64,000 nucleotides of DNA from Candidatus Parcubacteria bacterium (GCA_023443725.1 JAEZTF010000010.1:29948-93947), one strand, 5' to 3'; counted from the stretch's first letter, positions 30,788 to 59,313 are shown. Notes: generated by a model from the sequence alone, not told the origin. A program made the numbers and translations.

Positions 30788-30822
30788 ATTAGTAAATAGC
30801 TAATAAATAGTTAATAGTTGAA

Positions 30823-36211: not shown

Positions 36212-36216
36212 AGTTA

Positions 36217-37705: not shown

Positions 37706-37711
37706 AAACTG

Positions 37712-39136
37712 TCAATTCAGTTTGTTTACCTTATAAACTACCCACTTAGAATTTTCGATCTGCCAATAATTGTCAGGAGAATCTTTTCTAAAATGACTCA
37801 TCTCGTAAGCTGGGTCTTCTCTTATTTTGTCCCATGAGTTGTAACTGATCACATATAATGTTTTTGGATTTTGATAATCGTCAGACGCTAAGGGATATAT
37901 GTTTTGAACTTTCAAAAGATCTCGAAATCGACTACCTTTGGTGTTGCCGTCTGGACTTTGTAAAACTACTAGATTAAAAGTATTACTATTTGATTGAGAC
38001 AAATCATTTTTAATAATATTAGTTATTTTATTTAGAGCCTCTATATTATTAGTTGAATCATTTTGAAAAAGTATTTTTGGTAAAGAAAGCAAACTACTAA
38101 TGATAAGACTGATAATAATTAATCTGGAAATGTTTGATTTTAAATTTTTTGCTAACCATAAAATAAAAAACAAAATAGCTGGAATTAAATAACGATTAGC
38201 AATAGGTGAAGAAATAAAAGACAAACCTAAAAATTGAAATAAAATAGGTATTAAAAATAAGTTTAAGGAGGTTTTTTTTAAACGTATATTTTTAACAAAA
38301 AGTATTGTTGATAGTAATAATATTATCCAGATAAATATTTTGTTTCCATAAGATATGTATTGAATAAATTGTAACGGAGTGTTGATAAATTTAATAAAGA
38401 AATTGATTATACTGAAATGGCTATTGGATGAGATAGGACTAAAATATAACATTCGACTTAAGAATAGTCCTGGTGGATGGGTAATATCGAAAATAATGAA
38501 AGGAACGATAGAAATAAATAATCCAATTAAATACAAAATAATATCTTTTATCTTTTTATTTTTTTTATAAACAAGAAAAACTAATCCTAAACAAAAAAAT
38601 ATTGAATACCAATGTTGGTGAACTGTTAAACCAAATATTATGCCACTAATTAATATATTTAGAGGAAAATTTGAATTGAGAATTAATATTCCTAGAATTT
38701 GCCAGAATGGAATAAAATGTGGATTCCATGCCCATCTAGAAGTTTCTACATAAGGAGAAAGTATAACTGGTAATAAAAAAATAGGTAACCATTTTATTTT
38801 TTCTTTTTTTAAAAATAACCAAATTAATAAAACAGTCAATGAACCGTAAAAAGCAGTAGCCAAAGCTGGTCCAAGAGGATTGTTTTTTGAAAAAAATACA
38901 AATGGTAGAGAAATATAATATGTTAACGAACTAAAAATACCAGTGTTGCCTTCAGCAATTGGCCCAATAAGGGTGATATCTTTTTGATCAATAATTCTTT
39001 TTATGCTTACTAAATCACTTGATTCATCACGAGTAAATCTGGCCGTGATTTTAAGATTATAAAATCGAACAAAAATAGTGAATATAAATATCAAAAATAA
39101 TAGAAGTATTTTTTTATTTAATTTTATTTTTTTCAT
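37712..39136 (-). CDS. GT-C fold glycosyltransferase (PMT/ArnT-like, GT39/83-type).
   Basis: At least 11 TM helices. First-loop DE motif FTRDESSDLVS. Confidence 0.6.
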   Translation of the reverse strand: MKKIKLNKKILLLFLIFIFTIFVRFYNLKITARFTRDESSDLVSIKRIIDQKDITLIGPIAEGNTGIFSSLTYYISLPFVFFSKNNPLGPALATAFYGSLTVLLIWLFLKKEKIKWLPIFLLPVILSPYVETSRWAWNPHFIPFWQILGILILNSNFPLNILISGIIFGLTVHQHWYSIFFCLGLVFLVYKKNKKIKDIILYLIGLFISIVPFIIFDITHPPGLFLSRMLYFSPISSNSHFSIINFFIKFINTPLQFIQYISYGNKIFIWIILLLSTILFVKNIRLKKTSLNLFLIPILFQFLGLSFISSPIANRYLIPAILFFILWLAKNLKSNISRLIIISLIISSLLSLPKILFQNDSTNNIEALNKITNIIKNDLSQSNSNTFNLVVLQSPDGNTKGSRFRDLLKVQNIYPLASDDYQNPKTLYVISYNSWDKIREDPAYEMSHFRKDSPDNYWQIENSKWVVYKVNKLN

Positions 39137-40722
39137 TTTAATAATGAATCTTTGATTGGTTTTGTATTATGACAATTGTTATCTTTTGCTTGTCTAGTTT
39201 CTAGTAAAAAATCACCAAATTTAACTTGGTTTTTATAATCAGAAAAATATTCTTCAATTTTTAAATCTTCATTAATAATTTTTTCAGATAAACCATTAGC
39301 TGGTTCAACTACTCTAAATCTGATACATGTAGTGCCATTTGTTGGCGATGGTAAATTTCCTGGAAAGCCAAAGGTATTTCCTGTTTCCCAGAAAGGAAGA
39401 TAGCCATATTTTTTTTCTCCATAAAAATGGAATAAATATGCCCAAACTGTTTGGACTTTATAAGGTATTCCACTTAATCTGACGGTAAATCCATTGCCAT
39501 TGGCTTGTTGATATATATCATCGATTATTTTATATTCATCTGACAACTTCATATTTACTTGTGGTGCAAACTGAACAAGTAGACTTTTTGGTGATTGATA
39601 CTTAATTTGTTTTAAATTCCCCAATATTATTAATGCAACTAAAATGATTGCCAAGGGTTTATTAAATTTAAATAATTTTTCTAAAATGACGCTAACTAAA
39701 ATTAAAATTCCAACACTTAACCCAGCATTAGTGTAATAAGCTAAGTGACCTCCAATAAACATTAATATTACCCATCCAAGAATCCAAACTAAAAGTAAAA
39801 TATATTTTATATTTTTTCTAGCTTTGACAAAAAGCCACAAAGTAACAATAGAAATAATTATGTAGATAATTATTTTATTATCAATTAAGCCTAAAATATT
39901 ATCTTTAAACATTAATAAATATTTTTGTAAATATAAGGAATATTTTGATTCATTTGGATTTAAAATCCCGAAACCTTGTTGAAATAATGAAATTGCTAAT
40001 TTTATACTTCTAAACTTGTATTTCAGTTCTATTAATATATAAGTTGAGAGTATAAAAATGGTGGTAAAAAAGGAATATAAATAATATCTTATTTTTATTT
40101 TTTGTGCTTCTTTTTTGAATATTATTAAAATAATAAAAACTAATATAAAAGAGTAAACATACATTAAGTTGAATTGAGTGGCAATGGCTGCTCCGGTAAA
40201 CATTAGTAAAGGACTCCACTTTTCTTGTTTATCTTTGTTTAACAACCAACTAGCGCCATAAAAAATTAGAAGAATTGCTAAGACTGCCAGACTAGGGTTT
40301 CCAACATATATTGAATATTGAGTCTCTTCAAACGAAATAGCATAAAACAATGCTGATAATAAACCAACTTTTGAGTTAAAAATATTTTTGGCGATTATAA
40401 ATACTAGAAATACACCTAGAGCATTTATCAATCTAAATATGGCTGATATTAATAATGGGTTGCCATTTAACAAAAGATTTAATGGACCTATTAGATACCA
40501 AAAGAGAACTCCATGAAATAAACCTATATTACCTGATACTGGAGGCCCCATAAATTTTAAATCCCCTTTTAGATAAATGTCTTGGGAAATATAAATATCG
40601 CGAGCCTGATCGAAAGAAAAATAAATACTTTCTTTGAAAGAGTAAAATCTGACGATTATAGCAAAAATAAAAATAATGATTAAAAATAACCATTCATATC
40701 GTCTCATGGTTGATATTAGCAT
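39133..40722 (-). CDS. GT-C fold glycosyltransferase (PMT/ArnT-like), tandem paralog.
   Basis: Polytopic. First-loop FSFDQARDIYISQD acidic motif. A long C-terminal soluble domain. Confidence 0.55.
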   Translation of the reverse strand: MLISTMRRYEWLFLIIIFIFAIIVRFYSFKESIYFSFDQARDIYISQDIYLKGDLKFMGPPVSGNIGLFHGVLFWYLIGPLNLLLNGNPLLISAIFRLINALGVFLVFIIAKNIFNSKVGLLSALFYAISFEETQYSIYVGNPSLAVLAILLIFYGASWLLNKDKQEKWSPLLMFTGAAIATQFNLMYVYSFILVFIILIIFKKEAQKIKIRYYLYSFFTTIFILSTYILIELKYKFRSIKLAISLFQQGFGILNPNESKYSLYLQKYLLMFKDNILGLIDNKIIIYIIISIVTLWLFVKARKNIKYILLLVWILGWVILMFIGGHLAYYTNAGLSVGILILVSVILEKLFKFNKPLAIILVALIILGNLKQIKYQSPKSLLVQFAPQVNMKLSDEYKIIDDIYQQANGNGFTVRLSGIPYKVQTVWAYLFHFYGEKKYGYLPFWETGNTFGFPGNLPSPTNGTTCIRFRVVEPANGLSEKIINEDLKIEEYFSDYKNQVKFGDFLLETRQAKDNNCHNTKPIKDSLLK

Positions 40723-41318
40723 TATTTAAATAATTTATTGCTTTCTAATGGTTTCTCGATGATACTTTCAAAAAAATTTTTGATTAATTTTTGGGTGACA
40801 GGATAATCTTTTTTTTGAAAAGAAGTAATTATTTCTGGTGGTATTCCAAATCCTAAATTGTCTAAGAGTTTTATTTCATTGTCTATATATCGGTTGACTT
40901 GGTTTTTGTTGATAGATTCAATAATGTTTTTGGAAATAGAGTATATATTTTCGATTTGTTGATTTTCAGCAATAAATCGATTGATTAGTTCTAAAAAATA
41001 AAACAGTAAATTTAATTGAGTTAAACTTTTATCTGTTTGAAGAAATTGACTAATAGTTTGAGCTTCAGATATCCAAAGAAAATCATTTTTTTGATAGAGG
41101 TGAACCTTGATAATATTACCTAATTGAAGACTACCAAGACGACTACTTCTAATGTTTTTAGCACCTTTAGCTAAAGCAACAATCTTTCCATCTCTTGGGG
41201 TTAATAAAGTAATTAAACTATCAACCTCTTTTGAATTACGATGATTAATAACAATCGCTTCTGTTGTTTTATATTTATCCATTAGAGAGATACTTTTATA
41301 GTTTTGTCGGCTGCCCAA
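40722..41318 (-). CDS. recO: RecO-like recombination mediator, short form lacking the zinc motif.
   Basis: N-terminal OB-fold pattern EAIVI...SKEVDSLITLLTPRDGKIVALAKGAKNIRSSRLG. The probable start is MDKYKTT. Confidence 0.45.
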   Translation of the reverse strand: MGSRQNYKSISLMDKYKTTEAIVINHRNSKEVDSLITLLTPRDGKIVALAKGAKNIRSSRLGSLQLGNIIKVHLYQKNDFLWISEAQTISQFLQTDKSLTQLNLLFYFLELINRFIAENQQIENIYSISKNIIESINKNQVNRYIDNEIKLLDNLGFGIPPEIITSFQKKDYPVTQKLIKNFFESIIEKPLESNKLFK

Positions 41319-43240
41319 CTAAAAGTATCCATTTTTTTACCATTGATAGTTAAATTATATTCAACGGCTTTAGTACCTGGTTGTTTTTGAAGTAACAAAG
41401 AATAAGTTGATCCAACTTTAACCCCAGATTTATATTGAACAGAAACTTTACTGCTGGATTTTGGATACAAAGGATATTTATCTCCATAAAAACCTTCAAA
41501 AACTTGTTTATCTAACTCTTCATATTGAACAGTTTCAACTTCTGATCCGGTCATTTTGATAAGAGTTGAACCTTTTGGTACATAAAATCTAAATAGATCT
41601 CTATACTTAGAAGCATTTAGACAAAGATCACCTTTTTCAAGATTACAATTGGAAGCAGCATATGGATTGGTATAAGTAACAGAAACTTTGTGTTCCGCAA
41701 CTCCATTTTTGATAGTAATATCATGATCAATTTTTTGAGTAATAAACATGTTACTTTTGGCGCTAGCAAAATTAGCATCATTAAGATGAAGGTAATCGAT
41801 GGTTTCTGGTGTTTGAGTAATTTGGCCACTAATATTAGCTGAATTTCCTACTTCAGCCATATTTTTATCAGTAAAATAAACTAAAATATGTTTTTCATTA
41901 ATATTTTTAAAGAAAGCTTCGATTAGGCTGGTCATTTTTGACTTTTCAGATCCCATAACATTGGCTAATAAAGCAGACATAAGAGGATTTAAGAAATCTT
42001 TTCGATTTGGTTCAATGTAGTTTCTAGGTCGACCAGCCATCCATTCAATTTCGTAAATAACAGAAGGACAACCATTACATCTATTGTCAGGTTCGGCAGT
42101 AAATGTACCAACTCTAGTATCTAATTTACCTAAAACTTTAATCATATCGGCTAAAAGTTGAGTATCAATAGCAATAACAGCATCAAATGATTCCTTTGAT
42201 TTACTAGCTTTTTGATAATTTTCTAAGAAAAGTTGAGCATCAGTTGGAAAGTCAGGAGATAGATTACTATCTCGAAGATAAAGACTAGGGACATTTATAT
42301 GATAAGAAGAAATTAAACGTGGAGCTTTACCGAGAGTGCCTAAACGATCATCTAAATCATAAATATTACTAGCGGTTCCTGGAGTTACTTTGCCGTTAGA
42401 AACTGTCATAGTACTATAAGCAGTCCAAAAACCACCACTTGGTCGAAGTTCACCATCGTTTTGGAAAACCATCAAATAATGTCGAGGATCATCTTTTCCT
42501 AACAACCAAGAAATTTTTGATAATAAAGGTTTACCATTTTTAACTAATTGACCAACTTGAGTGACACTTTCTTGGGCTTGAGATATTTTTGATCTAATTT
42601 CGATATTCTTAAATTTTTCAGGATAACGATTTGGATTAATTTGATTAAGCTCAGTTTCAATATTGGTAATTTTTGTGTCTAATTCGTCTAAATATGGAAT
42701 TAAACCTTCGGCAGATTCGGTCAAGAAAGTAATTCTATCAGCAGTAGTTTTTTCACTACTATCAGATCCACCTTTGATGCCAAGAAAATCTTGATACGGT
42801 TCAATGGCTTGAATAACTATTTGACCAGCATCTATACCTTGAAATGCAATATTAATAACTTTTTGACCATCTTGATAATATTTGTTTAATCCAGGAATTA
42901 TTTTTAATAATCCCATTTTTTTATAAGTTGATTCAATTGTTTTAGTGTCAGTTTCAATATTGACTAAACTTTGATTGACTTTGGCTAAATCTTTATCACT
43001 AATAGCTTGCTGAATTATTTGATATTCACTTTTTATAGAATTGACTTTGTTTAATATTTTCTTACCTGGAACGAGAACAGTGAAAAACAAAAGAGAAAGT
43101 ACTAAAGTTATGACAATCAAGAATATCGATAAGATAGTAATGATTTTTTTACCTTTGTTTTTTTTCATAGGTTTTATCAATGATGTGTTTACTACATCTG
43201 ATATTGGTTCAGTTTGAATTGGTTTAATAAAATTATCCAT
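41282..43240 (-). CDS. DUF4012-like membrane-anchored extracellular protein.
   Basis: N-terminal TM. RHYLMVFQNDGELRPSGGFWTAYSTMTVSNGK resembles the DUF4012 HYL..FQN.aE.R..GG signature. 652 aa. Confidence 0.5.
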   Translation of the reverse strand: MDNFIKPIQTEPISDVVNTSLIKPMKKNKGKKIITILSIFLIVITLVLSLLFFTVLVPGKKILNKVNSIKSEYQIIQQAISDKDLAKVNQSLVNIETDTKTIESTYKKMGLLKIIPGLNKYYQDGQKVINIAFQGIDAGQIVIQAIEPYQDFLGIKGGSDSSEKTTADRITFLTESAEGLIPYLDELDTKITNIETELNQINPNRYPEKFKNIEIRSKISQAQESVTQVGQLVKNGKPLLSKISWLLGKDDPRHYLMVFQNDGELRPSGGFWTAYSTMTVSNGKVTPGTASNIYDLDDRLGTLGKAPRLISSYHINVPSLYLRDSNLSPDFPTDAQLFLENYQKASKSKESFDAVIAIDTQLLADMIKVLGKLDTRVGTFTAEPDNRCNGCPSVIYEIEWMAGRPRNYIEPNRKDFLNPLMSALLANVMGSEKSKMTSLIEAFFKNINEKHILVYFTDKNMAEVGNSANISGQITQTPETIDYLHLNDANFASAKSNMFITQKIDHDITIKNGVAEHKVSVTYTNPYAASNCNLEKGDLCLNASKYRDLFRFYVPKGSTLIKMTGSEVETVQYEELDKQVFEGFYGDKYPLYPKSSSKVSVQYKSGVKVGSTYSLLLQKQPGTKAVEYNLTINGKKMDTFSWAADKTIKVSL

Positions 43241-43268
43241 AGATAAGTTTAAACAAAATTATTACAAA

Positions 43269-43907
43269 TTACCATCTAGAAAGCATTGACAACGGTGTTT
43301 TGATGATAATAGTTATTTCTTCTATAAAAGATTGTTTTTTAATATAATCAGCATCCATTTTGGCTCTTTGTCTAAAAGATATATCATTTCTTCCGGATGT
43401 TTGCCAAACACCAGTGATACCCGGTTTAGCAGAACGAATAATTTTTATATATTTTTTGGTATCTGGATACTTTTTTTCTTGTTCTTGAAGTTCTTCTTCA
43501 CGATAGGCACGTGGTCCAATTAAACTCATATCCCCTTTTAAGACATTAATTAATTGAGGAAATTCATCGATAGTTAAAGATCGAATCTTTTTACCTATTG
43601 GAGTAATTCTAGGATCTTCTGACATTTCCAACTTCCAACCATTTTCTTTATATTTTTTCCAAAGTTCAGGATAATTTTCTCTTAATCTTTTATCATTATC
43701 TCCAGTGTACATAGATCTAAATTTGTACATCCAAAATTGTTGACTGTCTTTGCCAACTCTTTTTTGTTTAAAGAAGATTGGTCCTGGTGAACTTAATTTA
43801 ACTAAAATCATGGTAACTATCATGATTGGAGAAAATATTATCAATAAAACTAATGAACCAGTAATATCGACAGTTCTTTTGAAAATTTGGAAAATTTGTT
43901 TTTTCAT
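43269..43907 (-). CDS. Small monotopic phosphoglycosyl transferase (Bac_transf/PglC-WbaP C-terminal type).
   Basis: KRTVDITGSLVLL...SPGPIFFKQKRVGKDSQQFWMYKFRSM...DEFPQLINVLKGDMSLIGPR. Confidence 0.85.
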   Translation of the reverse strand: MKKQIFQIFKRTVDITGSLVLLIIFSPIMIVTMILVKLSSPGPIFFKQKRVGKDSQQFWMYKFRSMYTGDNDKRLRENYPELWKKYKENGWKLEMSEDPRITPIGKKIRSLTIDEFPQLINVLKGDMSLIGPRAYREEELQEQEKKYPDTKKYIKIIRSAKPGITGVWQTSGRNDISFRQRAKMDADYIKKQSFIEEITIIIKTPLSMLSRW

Positions 43908-43908
43908 T

Positions 43909-44997
43909 TTAATTTAAAAAATATTTTTTTAATTTTTTCTTTTTGACTATTTGTCCAACAATATCTCTAACTTTAGCACTACCATTTTTAGAAATATTAC
44001 AGATTAATAAACCATCTGGAGTATCTATAACAGCTAAATTATTAACATCGATTAGACTAACTAACTTGTTTCCTGAAGTTGAAATAAGGCAATTTTTGGA
44101 ACCAATTTCTAAATGATCAATATTTTTATTTAAAACAGCGATGCCATTTTGATCTTTGTCTAATTGATTATAAATAGATTTCCACTCACCTACATCACTC
44201 CAATCAAATTCAGCTGGAATAACAAGCATATTTTTTGATTTTTCGGAGATAGCCTGATTAATATTAAGGTTTTCTGATTTGTTGTAAATTGATTCAACTT
44301 GTTTGGAATTAGGATTCTTTACAAGTTCTTCGAAAAATTCATAATATTCAGGATGAATTTTTTGAAATTCTTCTAACATAACATTTATTTTGAAAGTATG
44401 AATGTCTGAATTCCAAAAACTGTTTTTTTTAATTAATTTTTCGGCAGTATCTGAATCTGGTTTTTCAATGAAAAAACTAATATTGGCATAATGATCACTT
44501 TTCTGTTGAGGCACAATATATCCAAAAGATGGATTTGGCCAAGTTGGTCTAATACCGATAGTAATTATTTTTTCCATTTTTGCAGCTAAATTAAAAGCGT
44601 AGTTGATAGATTTTTTGAACTTAAGAGATTTTGTGATGTATTGATCTGAAGCACTAGTAGTAATAATAGCTGTTGGATCAAGTTGATAAATTTTGCTCAT
44701 AGCAAAAATATAAGCCATGGCAGTATTTTTTTTGGCAGGTTCGTATAGAAAATTTTCTAACGGTATTTTTTTACCAATTAATTTTTCCAATTTTTCTTGA
44801 TATTTCTGATTGGAAACAATAAAAATATTTTTTGAAGGACAAACTTTTTTAGCTCGATTAAGTGTTTGTTCAATAAGGCTTTTTTTGCCAATTAAAGTTA
44901 AAAATTGTTTTGGATGATTAGCTCTAGATTGAGGCCAAAGACGAGGACCAGTACCTCCACAAAAAATTACAAAATAGTGATTTGGTGTTGTTGCCAT
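43909..44997 (-). CDS. manC: Mannose-1-phosphate guanylyltransferase (nucleotidyltransferase).
   Basis: VIFCGGTGPRLWPQSRANHPKQF. Confidence 0.7.
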   Translation of the reverse strand: MATTPNHYFVIFCGGTGPRLWPQSRANHPKQFLTLIGKKSLIEQTLNRAKKVCPSKNIFIVSNQKYQEKLEKLIGKKIPLENFLYEPAKKNTAMAYIFAMSKIYQLDPTAIITTSASDQYITKSLKFKKSINYAFNLAAKMEKIITIGIRPTWPNPSFGYIVPQQKSDHYANISFFIEKPDSDTAEKLIKKNSFWNSDIHTFKINVMLEEFQKIHPEYYEFFEELVKNPNSKQVESIYNKSENLNINQAISEKSKNMLVIPAEFDWSDVGEWKSIYNQLDKDQNGIAVLNKNIDHLEIGSKNCLISTSGNKLVSLIDVNNLAVIDTPDGLLICNISKNGSAKVRDIVGQIVKKKKLKKYFLN

Positions 44998-46073: not shown

Positions 46074-46076
46074 TTT

Positions 46077-48130: not shown

Positions 48131-48131
48131 A

Positions 48132-50739: not shown

Positions 50740-51629
50740 GCTTGTAGATAAATTGGTGATAAATGAATGATAGCGCGAATTAGAGCATTTATTTTTAAAA
50801 GCAATTTAACCAGAGGATATTGCCATTTTGGTTTGTGTTTTTTAAAAAAAGAAATAATGCCTCGATATTCATTCAGAATTGGATCAAGACGACTTGTAGC
50901 AGAAGCTCCACCTAAATGAATTATTTGTGGACCAATAAGGTACCAAACTTGATTATTGGTGGTATTTTTTCGAATCCGATAACAAAGTTCAACTTCTTCA
51001 CCGTACATAAAATAGCTTTCATCAAAACCACCGACTTTATCAAATAAATTTTTACGGGTAAGTAAAAATGCTCCGGTTACCCAGTCTTGGCGATGATCAG
51101 AAAGGTAAAATTTGTCTTTAGTATAAAATGTCGGAGTATGCGGGTGAATTGGTTTGATAATTTTATTAATTAAGGGAAGATCGTCAAGACTAAGACACCA
51201 AGTTAAAACATTAGCTAAATTGGGGAAAAATCCTCCACTGGCTTGAATAGTCTTGTCTTTGTTTAAAAGTTGAGCAGTACAAATAGAACTTTCTGGATGA
51301 GAACAAAGCCAGTCGAGACTTTGACTGATGGCAGAATGAAGAATTATAGTGTCAGAATTGAGTAAAAGAACATAGTTGCCTTTGGCTATTTTGACACCCT
51401 GATTATTGGCTTTACCAAAACCAGTATTGTCTTTGTTTTCAATTAGCGTAATTTTGTCTTTTAATTTTTTTAATTCTTGAACACTTTCATCATGAGAATT
51501 ATTGTCGATGACGATAATTTCAAAGGGAATCTCTTTTAGGCCTTTATCTAGAAAAATTGATTTAATGCAATCTAAAGTTAATTTAGCGGTATTGTAGGAA
51601 ATTATGATAATAGAAAGAATAGGTTTCAT
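50724..51629 (-). CDS. GT2 glycosyltransferase.
   Basis: LSIIIISYNT...IIVIDNNSHDES...LLNSDT. Confidence 0.8.
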   Translation of the reverse strand: MKPILSIIIISYNTAKLTLDCIKSIFLDKGLKEIPFEIIVIDNNSHDESVQELKKLKDKITLIENKDNTGFGKANNQGVKIAKGNYVLLLNSDTIILHSAISQSLDWLCSHPESSICTAQLLNKDKTIQASGGFFPNLANVLTWCLSLDDLPLINKIIKPIHPHTPTFYTKDKFYLSDHRQDWVTGAFLLTRKNLFDKVGGFDESYFMYGEEVELCYRIRKNTTNNQVWYLIGPQIIHLGGASATSRLDPILNEYRGIISFFKKHKPKWQYPLVKLLLKINALIRAIIHLSPIYLQACSKI

Positions 51630-52162
51630 TTTTTGTAGCCAGATTTAATTAAATAAAAAATAGCCACTATAGAAAGTTCAGTAAAAAAGAAAGAAATTAA
51701 GCGACGAGGAATGTTGGTAGGAAAAGTGCGAATAGTGATTTTACTTTTATATTCTTTATTTTGAAAAACCAATTTGTTTTTGGCTCGTTTTTCTGGTTTG
51801 GTAAAGACATCATTTTCCCACTCAAAACCATTAATATATAAAGACTCTTTGAAAGGAAGGATAAATTCTTCAAAATAATAACTAGGAATGGTATTGACAA
51901 TAATTTCTTTGGCTTTTTCGGGAGGATGATTGAGATTAATCATAAATAATCCATAGTAATTTGATTTGTAAAATTTCATGACTTCAGTTCTAGTCATATT
52001 GGTAAAATAAGCCGAAACATTGGGTATTTGAACTGTATCGCCTGGTAAGTCTGACTTAACACTATTGACCAAATCGGGTAATTTTGGAGTAGGTGTAATC
52101 AAGTAAATAACGGCAAATATATTGAAAATGATAAAGATAGTAATAAATATTTTTTTTATCAT
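51626..52162 (-). CDS. Hypothetical bitopic protein.
   Basis: N- and C-terminal hydrophobic segments. No motif. Confidence 0.35.
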   Translation of the reverse strand: MIKKIFITIFIIFNIFAVIYLITPTPKLPDLVNSVKSDLPGDTVQIPNVSAYFTNMTRTEVMKFYKSNYYGLFMINLNHPPEKAKEIIVNTIPSYYFEEFILPFKESLYINGFEWENDVFTKPEKRAKNKLVFQNKEYKSKITIRTFPTNIPRRLISFFFTELSIVAIFYLIKSGYKK

Positions 52163-52755
52163 TATTGAAAGAGCATGGAACGACCAAGACGATAATTGGG
52201 ATTGTCAATTTTGCGATCGGAGATTTTTTTAGCTGGTACTCCACCCCAAATTTCAAATTCAGGAATATCTTTAGTGACAATAGCTCCGGCGGCAACAACG
52301 GCACCTTTACCTATTTTAATGTTGGGTAAAATTATGGCCCTTGGGCCAATAAAAACATAATCTCCGATTTCAACTGGTCCAAAAGAATTACCATAATCTG
52401 GTGAATTGATATCATGTTCATCGTTATAAATTAAAACTTGACTAGCAATGCCAACATGGTTGCCAATTTTAAGAGGGGCGCGACCATCCATAAAACAATG
52501 ATCTCCAATAATAGTGTCGTGACCAATAGTGATATTTGATGGTTTAAAAAAATTAGCTCCAATATGAATAGTAGAATCGAACGGCATATCAATACCAGAA
52601 GCTAAATAAAATATTTTTCTAACAAAATGAAGTGGAATAAAACCAACAAATCTTAAGATCATTAACCAAAATTCCAAACAAATAGTTTGAATTCGAATAA
52701 TGATTTTTTGAAAAATATCTTTTTGAGTTAAATCTTTACCTACGCGATCTTTCAT
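52162..52755 (-). CDS. Hexapeptide-repeat (LbH) sugar O-acetyltransferase.
   Basis: Repeated [LIV]GxxxxIxxxxxI hexapeptides: IGANFF...IGHDTIIGDHCF...IGNHVGIASQVLI...IGKGAVVAAGAIV. Confidence 0.8.
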   Translation of the reverse strand: MKDRVGKDLTQKDIFQKIIIRIQTICLEFWLMILRFVGFIPLHFVRKIFYLASGIDMPFDSTIHIGANFFKPSNITIGHDTIIGDHCFMDGRAPLKIGNHVGIASQVLIYNDEHDINSPDYGNSFGPVEIGDYVFIGPRAIILPNIKIGKGAVVAAGAIVTKDIPEFEIWGGVPAKKISDRKIDNPNYRLGRSMLFQ

Positions 52756-52758
52756 ACT

Positions 52759-53910
52759 TCATTTTACTAAATTTTTATCAAAAACATTCATTATTGATTT
52801 GGCGGTGTTTTCCCAACTAAATTTGTCGGCTTGTTGTTTGCCAATTAATGAATATTTTTGCCTAACTTTGGGCTGTAAAATCTCAACCATTCTTTCAACC
52901 AGATCTGATTCTTTATTAGGGTCGATAAACAAACCACATTCAGCAACTACTTCTTTAAATGGAGGTATATGGGAAACTATTACCGGGGTGCCAATTTTCA
53001 TAGATTCAATAGCAGGAATACCAAAACCTTCATAAGTACTTGGTAAAATTGAAGCTATAGCATTTTGATAAAGAGTCCATTTTTGATCGTTATCAACAAA
53101 ATCTGTAAAAATCACCTTATCTTCTATCCTCTCTTTTTTGACAGTTTGAAAAATTTCTTCGAATAACCAACCTTTTTTACCAGCAATAACGAGTTTAGGA
53201 ATCAATCTTCCCCCATCCCCTTCTTTGACAAGACGGGGGGTAATATTATTTTGTTTTAAATATTTTGAATAAGATCGAATTAAAAAAGGAATGTTTTTGT
53301 TGGGTTTGAGAGTACCGAGGTATAGAAAGTAACTATTAGCTTTTAGTGAGTAGTTAGACAAAATTTTTTGTTGAGTTGTTTGATCAATTTTTGGTGGAGT
53401 GTCGACACCGTTGTAAGCAATACTAATTTTTTGTGGGTCAATAGAATAAGTTTTGATGATTTCGTCTTTGGAAAATTGGGAAACAGTACAGATATGTTTG
53501 GATTTTTTAATTGATTGAATAGTCCAATTTATGAGTTGATATAAATCTTTTTTGGTAAATTGGGATTGATATTTAAGATAACCGAGATCATGAATAGTAG
53601 GAATAGTAGGACAAGGACAAATAATTGGTGAATAATGACTAGGAGAAAAGAATAAATCTAATTTTTCAGTTTGAAAAAAAAGATGTAATGGCAGAGAAAA
53701 ACGTGTCCATAATTTTTTAGGGCCAAAAACACGATATTGCCAATTGGCATTAGCGGAAGGTAAATCTGATGATGGTTGATCTTTAAGATAAATAATATAT
53801 TGATTATTTTTGTCTAATTGATGGAGTTTAATTAAAACATTGAAAGCATATTGACCAACGCCAACTTTATTAGAAACATTAGCTTCGTTACCATCGATTC
53901 CGATTAGCAT
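52759..53910 (-). CDS. GT4 glycosyltransferase.
   Basis: EGFGIPAIESMKIGTPVIVS. Confidence 0.8.
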   Translation of the reverse strand: MLIGIDGNEANVSNKVGVGQYAFNVLIKLHQLDKNNQYIIYLKDQPSSDLPSANANWQYRVFGPKKLWTRFSLPLHLFFQTEKLDLFFSPSHYSPIICPCPTIPTIHDLGYLKYQSQFTKKDLYQLINWTIQSIKKSKHICTVSQFSKDEIIKTYSIDPQKISIAYNGVDTPPKIDQTTQQKILSNYSLKANSYFLYLGTLKPNKNIPFLIRSYSKYLKQNNITPRLVKEGDGGRLIPKLVIAGKKGWLFEEIFQTVKKERIEDKVIFTDFVDNDQKWTLYQNAIASILPSTYEGFGIPAIESMKIGTPVIVSHIPPFKEVVAECGLFIDPNKESDLVERMVEILQPKVRQKYSLIGKQQADKFSWENTAKSIMNVFDKNLVK

Positions 53911-55043
53911 GAGAGAGAATTATAAATTTGTAAAGTTTGTTTAGCAGTTTTAAGCCAACTGTATTTTTGGGCTAAAACAATTCCATTTTGGGCCATTTTT
54001 TTTCTTAACTTTGGATATTTGATTATTTTCTCAATAGCTTTACTAATTTCCAATTCTGAAGTTGGATTAACTAAAATAGCAGCACCTTGAGCCACTTCTA
54101 CCAAAGAAGAAGTATCGCTAGTGATAACTGGAACACCGACTTTTAGAGATTTAACTATTGGTAATCCAAAACCCTCATACAAAGAAGGATAAGCTAAACA
54201 AAGTGCACTGGCATGAAGAGCAACCATATCTTTTTCTGGTATAAAACCAAGAATTCTTACACCAGGATGATTTGTGGCGACATCTTTTCCCCAACCATAT
54301 TTACCGGTGATAGCCAATTCGACTTTACTTCCAGGATTTCTTTTTTTAAAAGAGATAAAGGCATTGATTAATCTATCTAAATTTTTTCTTGGTTCACGTG
54401 TGCCTTGAGCTAGAATAAATTTAGTTAGGCCATATTGTTTTTGAATTTTTTCTTTTTGAAGAGATTGTTCAGATAGGGAAAGTTTTAAAAATTTGCCAAA
54501 TTTTTCTTCGGCTGATTCATATATAACAGTTGTTTTGGTACGGTCTATTTGAGGAAACAACTTAAATAAATCATTTTGAGTATTTTTGGAGACACAAATA
54601 AAATATTTACTTTTTTTAGCAGCCCAATACATTTTATTTTTATGAGCTTGAATAACTTTTGGATGATGCCATTGAGGATATAAAAATGGAGTAAGATCAT
54701 GAATAGTACAAATAGTTTTGGCTTTGAATGTTGGAGGTTGAGTCCAGTCTGAAGTATGAAAAATATCACATTTACCAATAAAAAGTTCTATTGGAAAAAG
54801 TCGAAGTTGGTTCCATAAAATTTGAAGAATAGTTGGAGGAATTTTTGACTGACAAATAGTGACATTAGAATGATACTTAGTTAGTAATTTAATTTCTTCT
54901 GGTAGGGGGAGTCTGAGAGATGAATAAAAAAGTTTATATTGATTGCTTTTGTCAACTTTAAGTAAATTCCTGACTAAATTTAAGGTGTAATTACTAACAC
55001 CAGTTTGATATCCAACTGAAGAGATATCTATTCCAATAATCAT
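53904..55043 (-). CDS. GT4 glycosyltransferase.
   Basis: EGFGLPIVKSLKVGVPVITS. Confidence 0.8.
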   Translation of the reverse strand: MIIGIDISSVGYQTGVSNYTLNLVRNLLKVDKSNQYKLFYSSLRLPLPEEIKLLTKYHSNVTICQSKIPPTILQILWNQLRLFPIELFIGKCDIFHTSDWTQPPTFKAKTICTIHDLTPFLYPQWHHPKVIQAHKNKMYWAAKKSKYFICVSKNTQNDLFKLFPQIDRTKTTVIYESAEEKFGKFLKLSLSEQSLQKEKIQKQYGLTKFILAQGTREPRKNLDRLINAFISFKKRNPGSKVELAITGKYGWGKDVATNHPGVRILGFIPEKDMVALHASALCLAYPSLYEGFGLPIVKSLKVGVPVITSDTSSLVEVAQGAAILVNPTSELEISKAIEKIIKYPKLRKKMAQNGIVLAQKYSWLKTAKQTLQIYNSLSC

Positions 55044-56044
55044 ATTTTGATTGATTTTAACAGTTTTTGAAGTTGCTTTCTTTTGTTGATCATTTTGGGA
55101 AGTTTAATTAAGACTTGACTGTAAGTTTTAAGAATTGATATGGGTAAATAATAAATAGATTTTAATTTATACGATCTAATCGTAGTTTTGATTAAATAAG
55201 ATAAATTTCTTAATCTTTCTTCGGTAATTTTGGGTAAATTTTTTATTATCTCTTTTAGAGAATAATTTTTGATAATGACAAAAAACCAATTTTTGACATC
55301 CATACGGGCACGAAAATTACCCATTTGATTGCTAGTACCTCCACCAAGATGATAAGAAATAGCTTTTGGGATATATAAGGTTTTATAACCAAATTTGGTT
55401 AATCTTAAAGCTAAATCAACATCTTCTTCATAGGCAAAAAAATCTTGATCAAACATACCAATTTTTTGGATGATATTTTTTTGATAAACAACTAAAGCTG
55501 CAGAAGTACCCCATACTAGTTTATTAGTATTTAGCTTGTTAGCTTTTAGTAAAACAGATTTATGAAATAACTTACCATTGGAGATATTTTGACATTTACC
55601 AGAAATATAAAACTTTAAACCTTGAGATTCATATTTATCGCCTTCTTTATTTAAAACAGTTCCGAAAAAAGTAATAACTTTTTGATTTTTATTTTCTTTA
55701 ATGGCTTTTGTAATTAATTCAAACCAATCGGGATTGATAGTTAAATCGTTATTATATGGAACAACAAATTCATACTTGGCTTTTGAAATACCTAAATTTA
55801 TAGCTTTGGCAAAGCCAAGATTTTTAGGAGATGAAATAACTTTTGAAGTTAATTTGGTTGAACGATATTGGTTAAAAAAGTCTTTGATAATCTCAAGACT
55901 ATTGTCGGTTGAGTGGTTATCAATTATGATAATTTCAAAATTAGCCGAGGTAAATTTAATTGATTGATATAGAGAATAAAGACAGTCAAATAAAAAAATG
56001 GCACCGTTGTAGTTGGGGATAATAATAGAAAAATTATTGATCAT
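55040..56044 (-). CDS. GT2 glycosyltransferase.
   Basis: FSIIIPNYNG...IIIIDNHSTDNS. Confidence 0.8.
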   Translation of the reverse strand: MINNFSIIIPNYNGAIFLFDCLYSLYQSIKFTSANFEIIIIDNHSTDNSLEIIKDFFNQYRSTKLTSKVISSPKNLGFAKAINLGISKAKYEFVVPYNNDLTINPDWFELITKAIKENKNQKVITFFGTVLNKEGDKYESQGLKFYISGKCQNISNGKLFHKSVLLKANKLNTNKLVWGTSAALVVYQKNIIQKIGMFDQDFFAYEEDVDLALRLTKFGYKTLYIPKAISYHLGGGTSNQMGNFRARMDVKNWFFVIIKNYSLKEIIKNLPKITEERLRNLSYLIKTTIRSYKLKSIYYLPISILKTYSQVLIKLPKMINKRKQLQKLLKSIKI

Positions 56045-56492
56045 TTATTTTTGATAGATCGATGATATCGCCTGCTTTAAGGTTTATTTTTTTAGTTTCA
56101 TTTAGATTTAACTCAATGACATATTTAGCTGGTTGACTATTTTGAAGGATTTTAGTGGAGTTAGTTTCACTAACATTAATAATATCGGTAACCTTACCTT
56201 CTGAATTAAGCCAAATCATGTCTAAAGGAATGAACGTATCTTTCATCCAGAAAGGTAGAACTCCATTTTTGGAAAAAATAAAAATCATGCCACAGTTAGG
56301 ACAAAGGTTGGTTCGATTGGATAGACCAGCTGATTTTTGAGGAGTGGTTTTGGCGACTTCTAATTTGTAATCGATATTTTTAATTTTTAAATTGACAGTT
56401 TCAAACTTAGGTGGCGTTTTTTTGTAAAAGAAAAAAATAACAATTGGAATAGCGATGAGTATAATTAAAGTGATGGTAAGATTTTTTGACAT
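56034..56492 (-). CDS. DUF192 (COG1430) family protein.
   Basis: N-terminal TM, GLSNR...CGMIFIF...FWMKDTFIPLDMIWL...YVIELN...GD. Confidence 0.7.
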   Translation of the reverse strand: MSKNLTITLIILIAIPIVIFFFYKKTPPKFETVNLKIKNIDYKLEVAKTTPQKSAGLSNRTNLCPNCGMIFIFSKNGVLPFWMKDTFIPLDMIWLNSEGKVTDIINVSETNSTKILQNSQPAKYVIELNLNETKKINLKAGDIIDLSKINDQ

Positions 56493-57748
56493 ATTTTTTG
56501 ACTAACTTTGTTCCAAGTATAATTATTTTTAACATATAAATAACCATTTTGGCCAAATTGACGACAAAGTTTAGGATTAAAAATTAATTGTTGAATTTTT
56601 TGCTGAAGATCATCAATATCATCAGTTTTGAAAGTTAACCCCCCGTTTGATGATTTAACAATTTCTTTTAAAGATGGAATATCTGAAGTAATAACGGCTT
56701 TTTTTCTAGCCCAACTTTCTACTAGAACAAGGCCAAAACTTTCCTGAATTGATGGTAAAACTAAAAATTGGCATTGATCAATAATTGTAATTAAGTCTTT
56801 ATTGCTAACATTAAATTTGAAATGAATTTGTTTTTGGACCGATTTGGGAAGTGATTCAAAATATTTTTTTATTTGAGGAAAAAATAAAGTTTTTTGACCA
56901 ACAAGTATCAATCTTCCCTTAATCCCTTCTTTGACAAGACGGGAAAAACTATTTATTAACAAGTCGACACGTTTATGGGCGGCAAGAGAACCAATAAATA
57001 AGATTGTCAAACCCTTTCCGGATAAACCGGTTTTTCCCTTAAAAAGGGAAACTTTTTTTTCTTTTTTTAAAAATATATCCTCAACACCGTTGCCGGCAAG
57101 AATAATTTTTTTTTGGTTTATATTTAATTTTTTAATAAAAAAATCAGTTTCATATTTAGTTAAAGTCCAAAGATAATCAGCTTGTTGGAGAGTTTTGATA
57201 AGAGGTAAACGAGAAAAGTCGGGATCTGATTGGTGAAAAGAAGAATTGATGAGAAGTTTAGTGGATAATATTTTTCTGAAAAAATTAGCGTATAGAATAA
57301 TGGTGGTGGGAAGTGGGCCGGCAATAATTAACTCTGGTTTAAATTTAATTATTTTAATAGTAGCCCTAATAAAAGGTATGAGTTTAAAAATTGGTCCTTT
57401 TTGAAAAATTTGTAGCAATTGATGAAAGTAAGAGTTTTTGGGGATAAATAAATTAATAAATTTTAGAGGTCGACGAAGATGATGATAAACAGGAAGATAA
57501 ATAAAACCCTTTCCGGATAAACCGGTTTTTCCCTTAAAAAGGGAAACTTTTAAGCTCCCTTTTTTAAGGAGAGATGTCTGAAAGACAGAGGGGTTTTTCT
57601 TAATGAAATCGTCGGTGCTAGAGCAATCGGACGATAAATAAATTACATCATGGCCTTGAGATTCTAATTGATGGCTAAGTTGATAAACTACTTTTGATCC
57701 CCCATCGATAGCGGGAGGAAAAATATGACTAATTGCAAGTATTTTCAT
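56465..57748 (-). CDS. GT4 glycosyltransferase carrying two in-frame copies of a 48-bp repeat.
   Basis: ILAISHIFPPAIDGGS, and ESFGLVLVESWARKKAVITSD in the C-terminal half. Peptide KVSLFKGKTGLSGKG occurs twice. Confidence 0.75.
   Translation of the reverse strand: MKILAISHIFPPAIDGGSKVVYQLSHQLESQGHDVIYLSSDCSSTDDFIKKNPSVFQTSLLKKGSLKVSLFKGKTGLSGKGFIYLPVYHHLRRPLKFINLFIPKNSYFHQLLQIFQKGPIFKLIPFIRATIKIIKFKPELIIAGPLPTTIILYANFFRKILSTKLLINSSFHQSDPDFSRLPLIKTLQQADYLWTLTKYETDFFIKKLNINQKKIILAGNGVEDIFLKKEKKVSLFKGKTGLSGKGLTILFIGSLAAHKRVDLLINSFSRLVKEGIKGRLILVGQKTLFFPQIKKYFESLPKSVQKQIHFKFNVSNKDLITIIDQCQFLVLPSIQESFGLVLVESWARKKAVITSDIPSLKEIVKSSNGGLTFKTDDIDDLQQKIQQLIFNPKLCRQFGQNGYLYVKNNYTWNKVSQKICQKILPSL
57009..57056. 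repeat. 48-bp exact direct repeat, copy A: AAACCCTTTCCGGATAAACCGGTTTTTCCCTTAAAAAGGGAAACTTTT.
   Basis: Identical to 57504..57551. Contains the palindromes CCGG-ATAAA-CCGG and TTTCCCTT-AAA-AAGGGAAA. Confidence 0.85.
57504..57551. repeat. 48-bp exact direct repeat, copy B.
   Basis: See copy A. Confidence 0.85.
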
Positions 57749-57787
57749 GACACCTTATTATACGTGGTATCCTGATATTAAGTTTTT

Positions 57788-58747
57788 ATGGAATTAATAA
57801 AAAAGATTTTTAAATCAAAAATATTGAGGTTGATTTTTTCGGTGGCATTAATTTATTTTGCTTTTAGAAAAGTAGATATCAAAAGTTTATTGAGCCAATT
57901 AATAGGAATTAAATTATGGTTTGTGTTGGTGGTTTTGGTGATTTCTTTAATATTAAACTTATTAATTTCTTTTCGTTGGAGTCTACTTTTAATTAAGAAA
58001 CCAAAATTTAAAGATGTATTGGTGTTTTTCAAATCGAGTATGATGGCCTCGTTTTATGGTTTAATTTTACCTTCTGCAGCAGCCACAGATGTGGTTAAGT
58101 GGTTGTTGATAGATCAAAAATATCCTCAAATACCAAAAAGTAAAATGCTAGGTTCAGTTTTTTTGGATAGAGTAATTGGATTATCAACTTATATTTTTGT
58201 GGGTTTAGTATTTATTTTAATAGCTAAATCAAAAGGTATTTTGATTCCAGATATGATTTTTTATGCCATAGTTTGTTTAGTAATAGGGTTTATTGTTTTT
58301 TATGTTTTTATTTATTTCTTTGATCTTAAAAAAACAATTTTTAGATTTAAAATTTTTAAAAAATTTGAAAGCGTTGGTGAATTGGTCAATAGAGAAAATT
58401 TACCTCAAATTTTTAAGGGAATGTTGGTGGCGGTTTTTAGTGAATTTGGTTGGGTGCTGCAAACTTGGTTTATCTCTTGGTACTTTGGGGCTAATTTAAG
58501 CGTTTTTTCTATCTTAGTTTATATTCCAATTATTTCTTTGATATTAATATTACCAATTTCAATTGCTGGTTTTGGAGCTAGAGAACAATTATTTTTATTT
58601 TTCTTTTTGCCAGTTGGGGGAAAAGCGGAAGGAGTTTTGTTAACATCAGCATTTGGAGGGATATTGGGAATATTAATTTCTTTATTGGGAGGATTAATTA
58701 CTTTAACTCCTGAATTTAAAAATAATTTAAAGGATAAATTAAAATGA
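57788..58747 (+). CDS. Flippase-like / lysylphosphatidylglycerol-synthase-TM-domain (UPF0104) membrane protein.
   Basis: Eight TM helices. Its N-terminus ILRLIFSVALIYFAFRKVD is typical of the family, which is commonly found beside GT2 genes. Confidence 0.6.
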   Translation: MELIKKIFKSKILRLIFSVALIYFAFRKVDIKSLLSQLIGIKLWFVLVVLVISLILNLLISFRWSLLLIKKPKFKDVLVFFKSSMMASFYGLILPSAAATDVVKWLLIDQKYPQIPKSKMLGSVFLDRVIGLSTYIFVGLVFILIAKSKGILIPDMIFYAIVCLVIGFIVFYVFIYFFDLKKTIFRFKIFKKFESVGELVNRENLPQIFKGMLVAVFSEFGWVLQTWFISWYFGANLSVFSILVYIPIISLILILPISIAGFGAREQLFLFFFLPVGGKAEGVLLTSAFGGILGILISLLGGLITLTPEFKNNLKDKLK

Positions 58748-59169
58748 ACGAAGATTTTCAAAAGTTCCATATTTCCGTAAAAGGTTTAATAAAATTTGAT
58801 AATTCATTTCTTTTACTCCAAGAACATGATGGTATTTGGGAAGCTCCAGGTGGAAGAGTAAATGAAGGAGAATTATTAAAAGAAGCTTTATTAAGAGAGT
58901 TAAAAGAAGAATTAGATTTTAATTTATCATTAGACGATATAGGAAATTTATTTGAATTTAATCAAAGATATGATTATAAATTGGGTAACGGTTGGTGTTT
59001 GATGACTCTTTTTTTTGAAATTTCATTAAAACAAAAATTGGAAATTAATATTAGTGATGAACATGTTAACTTTGTTTGGGTAAAAAAAGATACTGATTTA
59101 AGTAAATTTGTTTTTAAAAACCCAATTCAAAGAGCTATATTCGAGAATTTTAAAAATAATTTGAAATAA
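58744..59169 (+). CDS. NUDIX hydrolase.
   Basis: Nudix box GIWEAPGGRVNEGELLKEALLRELKEELD. Confidence 0.8.
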   Translation: MNEDFQKFHISVKGLIKFDNSFLLLQEHDGIWEAPGGRVNEGELLKEALLRELKEELDFNLSLDDIGNLFEFNQRYDYKLGNGWCLMTLFFEISLKQKLEINISDEHVNFVWVKKDTDLSKFVFKNPIQRAIFENFKNNLK

Positions 59170-59203
59170 TTGACATTGTTTTGATATTTGTTAAAGTATT
59201 TTT

Positions 59204-59290: not shown

Positions 59291-59313
59291 ATAAATTTAA
59301 ATAAAGGAAAAAT

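Follow-up and report, generated by a model that had tools for sequence, protein, structure and literature searches.

An envelope-glycan operon with a conserved core and a variable GT-C slot in a Shapirobacteria-like genome

Introduction

What kind of surface glycan is built by a gene array of roughly 21 kb in a bacterium of the candidate phyla radiation (CPR, or Patescibacteria), and do all of its genes belong to one unit? An attached life on other cells is presumed for these bacteria, whose surfaces have hardly been characterised. We analysed a stretch of 64,000 nucleotides from Candidatus Parcubacteria bacterium (GCA_023443725.1 JAEZTF010000010.1:29948-93947), which is called the window below and is AT-rich (GC about 30%), and the locus in question lies at positions 37712-58747. 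An earlier description made from the sequence (the original prediction) had presented it as a complete initiate-elongate-flip-ligate gene set with two adjacent glycosyltransferases (GTs) of the GT-C type, typical of S-layer or pilin O-glycosylation. Our analysis showed a conserved operon for an envelope glycan, with a slot in which GT-C genes are exchanged; it occurs in an under-studied lineage and is of known kinds of system. The attribution to CPR held, and those homologs that carry a name came from Candidatus Shapirobacteria and from further Microgenomates lineages; judged from these homologs, the source of the window is Shapirobacteria-like (Microgenomates group, Patescibacteria/CPR).

Results

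Conserved core and variable slot

Protein families were called with Pfam and NCBIfam on window open reading frames (ORFs) of at least 90 aa, and a few small ORFs were checked for hydrophobic segments only. The terms GT4-type and GT2-type are proxies from Pfam names (Glycos_transf_1 and Glycos_transf_2) and are not CAZy assignments. The locus contained 20 consecutive minus-strand ORFs running from 57748 to 37712, with gaps of at most 28 bp and many overlapping stop and start codons. At its start (57748), a 39-bp spacer separated the array from plus-strand genes, the first of which (57788) encodes a UPF0104 protein. At its end (37712), a 157-bp gap was followed by a class-II tRNA synthetase gene, and beyond this gene came the mraW-PBP-mur-ftsA-ftsZ division/wall cluster. 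A scan of 36000-44000 for promoters and terminators found nothing above background level.

Relatives of the locus were sampled through the first GT-C protein, GT-C1 (genome scan), the Wzy_C protein and DUF4012 (metagenome scan), and the window proteins were mapped onto the resulting loci (numbered with L) by tblastn. The core order was divergent UPF0104, then GT4f-DUF192-GT2c-GT4e-GT4d-AcT-178aa-GT2b-WzyC-GT4c-GT2a-GT4b-GT4a-ManC-PGT-DUF4012-RecO, where AcT is a sugar O-acetyltransferase, 178aa a conserved 178-aa protein and PGT a priming phosphoglycosyl transferase. This order was kept in every Shapirobacteria-like locus that was long enough. L071 and L072 covered the whole core, including the divergent position of UPF0104, and L073, L077, L078, L080 and L084 spanned AcT to RecO with the order kept. 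The amino-acid identity per core gene was about 50-96% among relatives, and the sole differences in the core were small insertions, such as a methyltransferase in L071. RecO directly followed DUF4012 in every relative examined.

What came after RecO was different from strain to strain. The tRNA synthetase gene followed directly in L071, L073, L075 and L080, a small cupin-like ORF was found in L074, and an unrelated ATP-grasp gene with other genes was found in L072, L077 and L084. GT-C1 alone occupied this slot in L005-L011, and a third GT-C of 595 aa (PMT 36 bits, PMT_2 31 bits) occupied it in L076 and L078, while the window had GT-C2 plus GT-C1. GT-C2 was absent in L005-L011 and L071-L084, i.e., in most relatives. 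A relative with about 83% identity probably shares the two-GT-C arrangement: P0002, P0123 and P0234, which are its homologs of GT-C1, GT-C2 and the Wzy_C protein, all list the same longest contig of 44,112 bp. The GT-C genes (37712-40722) are therefore outside the fixed core and belong to a slot that closes the operon at its 3' end and varies between strains. This synteny means that the predicted 21-kb unit is in fact a conserved, colinear core of about 17.5 kb (41282-58747) plus a 3' slot that in relatives has no GT-C, one GT-C or a different one; the GT-C genes are no fixed members of the locus.

The two GT-C proteins

GT-C1 (474 aa; 37712-39136, minus strand) is the final gene of the array. 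It had no match in Pfam, NCBIfam or PDB sequences, and among 35 relatives two weakly touched a PMT-type model (one PMT; one PMT_2, E 0.016). Its AlphaFold2 model, based on a 35-sequence alignment, had a predicted local distance difference test score (pLDDT) of 91.6 and a predicted TM-score (pTM) of 0.90. A Foldseek search of this model against PDB returned ALG12 (E 2.9e-5, TM-score 0.59) and ArnT (E 5e-5, TM-score 0.55), followed by AglB, ALG9, PglB, AftB and Pmt4. All seven enzymes had a probability of 1.00 and TM-scores of 0.45-0.59, and matches other than GT-C enzymes stayed below a probability of 0.15. According to the structural model, GT-C1 is thus a true GT-C-fold membrane glycosyltransferase whose family is not captured by Pfam. 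This family is sizeable: out of 1.84 billion representatives, 300 clusters matched it at E<=1e-30 and 1749 did so at E<=1e-10. All informatively named genome matches were Microgenomates lineages.

The first loop of GT-C1 contains R-D37-E38-S, in which D37 was invariant and E38 was present in at least 90% of the 35 sequences. Other invariant residues were R134-W-A-W137, P139, H173, H175 and F216-D217, and N138 was nearly invariant; they fall in motifs such as SRWAWNP (133-139) and FD216-217...PPGLF. GT-C2 (529 aa; 39133-40722, minus strand) matched PMT_2 with 30 bits (cut-off 26.1), and its first loop reads F-D38-Q-A-R-D42, with D38 and D42 invariant in 37 sequences. A first-loop DE motif had been predicted for both proteins, which is right for GT-C1, while GT-C2 has the D38/D42 pair instead. 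In both proteins the outward position of loop 1 was deduced from the positively charged N-terminus and the first transmembrane (TM) segment; the D37 loop of GT-C1 should face outward because it is preceded by a Lys-rich N-terminus and TM1. Neither protein had a PF02366 (PMT) or MIR match in Pfam, so there was no PMT/GT39 architecture. The concern that both might be generic DUF membrane proteins without the catalytic loop did not apply, since GT-C1 had a confident fold with invariant D37 and GT-C2 passed the PMT_2 cut-off.

BLASTP aligned only 53 residues of GT-C1 and GT-C2 with 30% identity, while profile-profile comparison with hhalign aligned 374 columns (98.6% probability, E 9e-16, 21% identity). 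At the level of sequence profiles the two proteins are remote paralogs, so the paralogy that had been predicted is confirmed only in this distant sense. Most structural matches of GT-C1 (ALG12, ArnT, ALG9, AftB and Pmt4) use polyprenyl-phosphate-monosaccharide donors, and by analogy GT-C1 and GT-C2 would most likely use polyprenyl-phosphate-linked sugar donors. A 277-aa GT2 that recurred beside GT-C1 homologs looked WaaE-like and not DPM1-like; among the window genes it came closest to the GT2 gene at 7090-7863, outside the locus.

Do the GT-C genes work with the glycan core at all? They could be functionally unrelated passengers, with the space that separates RecO from the tRNA synthetase gene acting as a permissive insertion site, and GT-C1 and GT-C2 would then serve other envelope pathways, e.g., of lipids, peptidoglycan-linked polymers or proteins. 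The slot also held unrelated genes (ATP-grasp, cupin) in L072, L074, L077 and L084, the housekeeping gene RecO stands between the GT-C genes and the glycan genes, and most GT-C1 homologs were found in other contexts, often in islands with multiple GT-C paralogs. However, the genes that recurred in the slot included three different GT-C subfamilies, which are not random genes, and the GT-C genes were translationally packed with RecO and DUF4012 by overlaps of 1-4 bp. In addition, a GT-C1 homolog lay beside or inside the WzyC-GT2b-178aa-AcT-GT4d-GT4e block, in another arrangement, in Woesebacteria CP011214 (L020) and in L014, L016, L065 and L066. Since GT-C1 recurs at the WzyC-AcT-GT4 module in Woesebacteria and other distant Microgenomates, its link to the glycan genes does not seem accidental, and we regard the passenger explanation as possible but on balance doubtful.

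When the genes around 62 GT-C1 homologs were clustered without bias, PMT_2 proteins appeared in 24 loci, PTPS_related/YfhO-like proteins in 13 and GT-C2-like proteins in 12; GT2 and GT4 enzymes were also common, and Wzx was found in 9 loci (e.g., L020 and L050). The L020 locus (CP011214, Woesebacteria) was itself a glycan island at 643-20924. It had at least four GT-C genes (three above the PMT_2 cut-off, the fourth being the GT-C1 homolog), and between these lay two more ORFs, each longer than 400 aa and without annotation. The island also had genes of the GT2 and GT4 types, a homolog of asparagine synthase and a Wzx flippase. Islands of this type, with several GT-C paralogs, seem to be typical of Microgenomates. 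We also observed that, among L003-L070, many records of metagenome-assembled genomes with clear Microgenomates-type genes were titled "uncultured Gammaproteobacteria" or "Pseudomonadales bacterium", and these titles appear to be placeholder or erroneous labels.

Gene content of the core

All the genes listed in the original prediction were found at their positions by the ORF, Pfam and NCBIfam searches, and a dedicated surface-glycan operon was borne out, with a PGT, GDP-mannose supply, nine cytoplasmic GTs, an acetyltransferase and a Wzy_C-type enzyme. The inventory had missed two genes, namely RecO (40722-41318) and the 178-aa protein with two TM segments (51626-52162). All core genes of the array are on the minus strand. 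Next to the slot, RecO (RecO_N 59.8 bits, RecO_C 23.6 bits) is a housekeeping recombination mediator and no glycan gene, and it was nevertheless found inside the glycan operon, where it overlaps the end of the DUF4012 gene and abuts GT-C2.

The PGT (212 aa, 43269-43907) matched Bac_transf with 204 bits. It had the hallmarks of a lone hydrophobic segment (12-30) with S26-P27 and a D113-E114 dyad, and its best PDB sequences were the WbaP catalytic domain (E 5e-38) and PglC (E 1.5e-30). Judged by these features, it is a small monotopic phosphoglycosyl transferase, i.e., the priming enzyme. It adjoins the DUF4012 gene (41282-43240, 87.5 bits), whose product has a single TM segment (aa 29-47) and a large extracellular part. 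A PGT next to DUF4012 is also found in the Bifidobacterium longum exopolysaccharide/capsular polysaccharide (EPS/CPS) cluster (PMC5412050), and DUF4012 has been flagged as a family common to CPR and Gram-positives (PMC6744442). The DUF4012 protein probably assists the pathway at the outer face. On the other side of the PGT, ManC (43909-44997) is a mannose-1-phosphate guanylyltransferase with the NTP_transferase and ManC_GMP_beta-helix domains and without the isomerase domain; its match to TIGR01479 in NCBIfam (237 bits) spanned model positions 4-351 of 467.

The nine GTs are distributed along the array. GT4a (44967-46073) and GT4b (46077-47210) had Glycos_transf_1 scores of 111 and 120 bits, GT4d (52759-53910) and GT4e (53904-55043) scores of 97.5 and 82.2 bits, and GT4f (56465-57748), the opening gene of the array, a score of 106 bits. 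GT4c (48132-49346) was stp1/TIGR03087-like (Glyco_trans_1_4 48 bits, TIGR03087 128 bits). GT2a (47207-48130), GT2b (50724-51629) and GT2c (55040-56044) matched Glycos_transf_2 with 89.9, 83.5 and 90.5 bits, and GT2a and GT2c had no TM segment. None of the nine GTs in the locus could be given an equivalog-level function by NCBIfam.

The acetyltransferase AcT (52162-52755) is a hexapeptide protein with a left-handed beta-helix (Hexapep 57 bits), and its top subfamily was WcaF-like (74.8 bits). Beside it, the 178-aa protein had TM segments at 1-19 and 154-172 and no Pfam or NCBIfam match, and tblastn synteny showed that it accompanies GT2b and AcT even in Woesebacteria. The DUF192 gene (56034-56492, 85 bits) encodes a small exported protein with an N-terminal TM or signal segment, and the protein matched PDB 3pjy, a protein of unknown function, with E 7.6e-17. 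Four proteins of the locus have an outer-face topology: the Wzy_C protein, DUF4012 with one TM segment, DUF192 with its signal or TM segment and the 178-aa protein. Nothing meaningful was matched when PDB sequences were searched, with single sequences and with profiles, for GT-C1, GT-C2, the Wzy_C protein and DUF4012.

The Wzy_C protein and the question of O-glycosylation

The Wzy_C membrane protein (49333-50739, minus strand) had Wzy_C as its only Pfam family at E<=0.01, with a score just under the cut-off. About two thirds of its 120 listed homologs had a precomputed PF04932 match. Homologs were annotated as O-antigen ligase family, and an identical protein was found on at least five contigs. 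The predicted PT linker is real: a low-complexity insert rich in Pro and Thr lies at about aa 285-322 (49774-49887, minus strand) in a large loop. Its composition was conserved in 26 homologs while its sequence was variable, it ends in a conserved PTPTxxRH, and its pLDDT was below 50, which predicts disorder. In a motif-level comparison with E. coli WaaL, R228, R341 and D376 corresponded to R215, R288 and H338, and all three were invariant in 27 homologs. The His is essential in both WaaL and PglL (PMC3643930), and D376 lies in "TDNDYL". The reading of a His-to-Asp replacement is tentative because the hhalign alignment to WaaL was not significant (probability 0.14%). From its family, the protein may act as polymerase, as ligase or as O-oligosaccharyltransferase (O-OTase).

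The last option leads to a different reading of the whole locus, namely general protein O-glycosylation. In this reading the Wzy_C protein would be a PglL/PilO/WsaB-like O-OTase that transfers a glycan of about ten sugars en bloc to Ser/Thr in the Pro/Thr-rich linkers of secreted proteins or in an S-layer, and the GT-Cs would be PMT-like protein mannosyltransferases. The Wzy_C domain is indeed common to PglL, PilO and WsaB/WsfB (PMC3643930, PMC2943079), and the slg clusters of Gram-positives are similarly packed and have WbaP-type priming (PMC2943079). One PGT with nine GTs would suit one large oligosaccharide more readily than it would a repeat unit, the locus has ManC and PMT_2-type GT-Cs, and the window has PT-rich segments in the protein encoded at 8732-11146 and in the Wzy_C protein itself. 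However, the Wzy_C protein had no PglL_A (PF15864) match at E<=0.01, its invariant D376 apparently takes the place of the essential His of WaaL/PglL (in an alignment below statistical significance), and neither GT-C matched PF02366 or carried MIR domains. No S-layer, pilin or other target gene adjoined the locus, and no exporter was found among the scanned window ORFs. A search for target proteins found only two genuine PT-rich stretches in the window, and the one outside the Wzy_C protein belongs to the hydrolase at 8732-11146. This gene lies 26 kb from the locus, next to another Wzy_C gene whose product keeps a His in that region. Thus, neither S-layer/pilin O-glycosylation nor the two PT-linker proteins as its targets, as originally predicted, was upheld for this locus, and we consider protein O-glycosylation an unlikely explanation of it.

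The hydrolase gene lies next to a second, mini glycan cluster (6035-8704, minus strand). Here a 358-aa Wzy_C protein scored 50 bits, above the main one, and kept a His in "NSHANSG". The cluster also has GT2 genes for proteins of 257 and 181 aa (minus strand; cluster region 6035-11146 and 5325-6038). It is divergent from the gene for the secreted 804-aa LCAT-like alpha/beta-hydrolase (8732-11146), which has a Pro/Thr linker at about aa 222-268, and lies near a Glucodextran_B/Big_6 surface protein. This cluster and its PT hydrolase make a more plausible pair of O-OTase and target than the main locus does.

UPF0104 and the parts not found in the window

No Wzx/MOP flippase, GtrA-type flippase, ABC exporter, polysaccharide co-polymerase (PCP/Wzz) or LCP ligase was found among the scanned window ORFs, and the hydrophobic-segment check found no small multi-TM ORF in the window. 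The only flippase-like protein in the locus was UPF0104 (57788-58747, plus strand), of the LPG_synthase_TM or MprF-flippase-domain family. It matched PF03706 with 109 bits (cut-off 33.4) over model positions 2-302 of 302, matched TIGR00374 with 35.6 bits and had at least six hydrophobic segments. On this family assignment UPF0104 is a candidate flippase for lipid-linked sugars. For this family, flipping is supported or predicted only for lipids with small head groups, namely aminoacyl-phosphatidylglycerol (aminoacyl-PG) by MprF, glucosaminyl-PG (GlcN-PG) by GpgF (unverified) and dolichyl-phosphate-hexose (Dol-P-hexose) by the C-terminal domain of AglD (predicted) (PMC5898192, PMC12713373). Flipping of an oligosaccharide by UPF0104 is without precedent. 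"Complete" flip-ligate was therefore an over-statement in the original prediction, because the only flippase-like protein belongs to a family known or predicted to flip only small-head-group lipids, and the other exporters and ligases listed above did not turn up among the scanned window ORFs.

UPF0104 might then have a job other than moving an oligosaccharide. It could form a glycolipid module with the divergent GT4f (56465-57748), in the manner of GpgS/GpgF or HexS/HexF, or it could flip the polyprenyl-phosphate-monosaccharide of the GT-Cs as predicted for AglD. All described or predicted substrates of the family, such as Lys-PG, GlcN-PG and Dol-P-hexose, are small-headed (PMC5898192, PMC12713373, bioRxiv 10.1101/2022.03.11.483950), and archaeal members neighbour PMT/STT3-like GT-Cs and AglD-like GT2s (PMC5898192). 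The divergent pair of GT4f and UPF0104 was kept in L071 and L072, and GT4f weakly matched the GlcNAc-PG synthase model (47.6 bits, cut-off 480). However, this GlcN_PG_synth score is far under the threshold and most GT4s here gave similar weak matches, no deacetylase was present, and UPF0104 was kept in relatives without a GT-C in the slot. Fusions of the family domain to O-antigen-ligase domains have been reported (bioRxiv 10.1101/2022.03.11.483950), which would fit a role with the Wzy_C enzyme. Taken together, we judge it rather unlikely that UPF0104 serves such a separate module, and we keep it as the candidate flippase of the glycan pathway.

Genes flanking the locus

Downstream of UPF0104, the plus strand carried a NUDIX hydrolase gene (58744-59169), metK (59314-60432), GalE (60552-61532), a DedA/VTT-domain protein gene (61576-62118) and an Nramp metal transporter gene (62115-63497, 292 bits). 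GalE, a UDP-glucose 4-epimerase three genes away (TIGR01179 466 bits, cut-off 262), is outside 37712-58747 and possibly supplies precursors, and its neighbourhood was kept in L072. DedA proteins are linked to polyprenyl-phosphate recycling, and the DedA/VTT protein could be relevant to a lipid-carrier-dependent pathway. A SAM-I/IV riboswitch match was found at 59202-59323 (plus strand; 42.7 bits, gathering score 41.1), just upstream of metK and overlapping its start, which suggests feedback control by S-adenosylmethionine (SAM) in a CPR genome.

On the other side, the division/wall cluster (24347-31419, minus strand) had unusual passengers among its Mur ligases, namely an ATP-grasp gene (24347-25480), a PLP-dependent PALP enzyme gene (25477-26298) and a gene for a 198-aa ATE_C-like (Arg-tRNA-protein-transferase C-terminal-like) protein (30823-31419). 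These genes hint at a non-standard peptidoglycan stem or cross-bridge.

Discussion

The proposed pathway

We consider it fairly probable that the core (41282-58747) encodes a pathway, conserved in Shapirobacteria, for an envelope heteroglycan linked to polyprenyl diphosphate, with strain-variable, extracellular decorating GT-Cs. The order of the steps and their substrates are what we infer from the families present. On the cytoplasmic face, the PGT would prime the lipid carrier with hexose-1-phosphate, and up to nine GT4/GT2 enzymes would extend it with GDP-mannose from ManC and UDP-sugars as donors (GalE is encoded nearby). The hexapeptide transferase would O-acetylate the glycan. The lipid-linked glycan would then cross the membrane through a flippase, for which the divergent UPF0104 is the sole candidate in the locus. 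Once outside, the glycan would be either polymerised by the Wzy_C protein or ligated by it to its final acceptor, and DUF4012, DUF192 and the 178-aa protein, all exported, presumably play an accessory part. GT-C1 and GT-C2 would most likely add single sugars from polyprenyl-phosphate-sugar donors, outside the membrane, to the glycan or to another envelope acceptor. The multi-component systems of Gram-positive wall polymers offer a model for this last step: their GT-Cs decorate extracellularly, can have low sequence similarity, can vary between serotypes and are often PMT_2 or Pfam-negative (PMC8035078).

Several points weigh against this explanation. No Wzx/MOP flippase, ABC exporter, PCP/Wzz or LCP protein that would account for export and attachment was found among the scanned window ORFs. 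No membrane-anchored GT2 of the GtrB/CsbB/DPM1/ArnC-like type was found in the window: the five GT2 proteins there were without TM segments or short, and none was assigned to the ArnC, GtrB or DPM1 models. Neither a recognisable polyprenyl-phosphate-sugar synthase nor GtrA, which could supply the GT-Cs with donors, was found in the window. For a Wzy-type repeat unit, as many as ten enzymes that add sugars would be a large number. The Wzy_C match (E 1.9e-7, model positions 4-148 of 149) scored 31.4 bits, marginally below the Pfam cut-off of 31.7. The AlphaFold2 model of this protein had a pLDDT of 66.7, with all aligned input sequences sharing 62% identity or more, and was too poor to classify; its Foldseek search found nothing, the best loosely related match being RodA with a probability of 0.14. 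Finally, about 45 of the 68 loci with GT-C1 homologs in other genomes did not adjoin this glycan module, and because most homologs sit elsewhere, the link between GT-C1 and the glycan could be opportunistic.

A bolder possibility is that CPR Microgenomates have a streamlined envelope-glycosylation machine in which canonical parts are replaced. UPF0104, and not Wzx or GtrA, may move lipid-linked sugars across the membrane. A divergent Wzy_C enzyme may use an Asp for the catalytic His of WaaL/PglL, and a 35-residue Pro/Thr tether in its catalytic loop may allow ligation of a glycan of about ten sugars to Pro/Thr-rich surface proteins or the wall. A soluble GT2 together with the 178-aa membrane protein may make the polyprenyl-phosphate-sugar by analogy with GacI/GacJ, and a cassette-like end slot may swap at least three GT-C subfamilies, one of them the unannotated 300-cluster family, and so diversify the glycan between strains. 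That all four features hold jointly is highly improbable in our view.

Under the envelope-heteroglycan reading that we prefer, the conserved and compact operon of about 17 kb probably makes the main envelope glycan of Shapirobacteria, and the strain-variable GT-C slot could explain surface diversity. The GT-C1 family is a sizeable one that domain databases have missed, and the confident model makes it annotatable. If UPF0104 does take the place of Wzx, the range of known glycolipid flippases would become wider. Judged by its families, the gene content is otherwise as expected of a monoderm-type polysaccharide locus, and the kit is mostly ordinary.

Comparison with known systems

The locus resembles the Wzx/Wzy loci of Gram-positives for CPS, EPS and secondary wall polysaccharides in its run of GT4/GT2 genes, acetyltransferase, Wzy_C-type protein, nucleotide-sugar genes and overlapping packing in one direction. 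As in the eps cluster of B. longum 105-A, the Bac_transf priming gene adjoins DUF4012. In contrast to these loci, the window has no Wzx (MOP), Wzz/PCP, tyrosine kinase or LCP ligase, and the core is highly conserved and colinear instead of serotype-variable, with RecO embedded and UPF0104 beside it. The slg clusters of Geobacillus and Paenibacillus and the PglL/PilO systems share with it the WbaP-type priming, the packed GT operon, a Wzy_C protein as the last outer-face enzyme and galE nearby. They differ from it in the Wzm/Wzt ABC transporter, the TPR (tetratricopeptide repeat) partner, the PglL_A motif and the neighbouring S-layer or pilin gene, all of which the locus lacks; compared with PglL/PilO, the position of the catalytic His is also apparently an Asp (the alignment not being significant).

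The GT-Cs are closest in kind to the multi-component systems (GtrABC; CsbB-GtcA-YfhO; GtlA-GtcA-GtlB; GacI/J-GacK-GacL; PMC8035078). In these systems, as here, the GT-Cs are partly PMT_2 and partly Pfam-less, have an acidic outer-loop motif and lie strain-variably at a wall-glycan locus, and structure prediction gives ArnT, PglB and AglB as the best templates (PMC8035078). Unlike these systems, the window has no membrane-anchored GT-A enzyme that makes an undecaprenyl-phosphate-linked (C55-P) sugar and no GtrA- or Wzx-type flippase, UPF0104 being the only flippase-like gene. For UPF0104 the nearest comparison is with archaea, where arCOG00899 neighbourhoods also bring UPF0104, GT2 and GT-C genes together (PMC5898192). 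The UPF0104 protein here is a stand-alone bacterial protein that is not fused to a GT2, and a bacterial PGT does the priming, while the flippase role is predicted in both.

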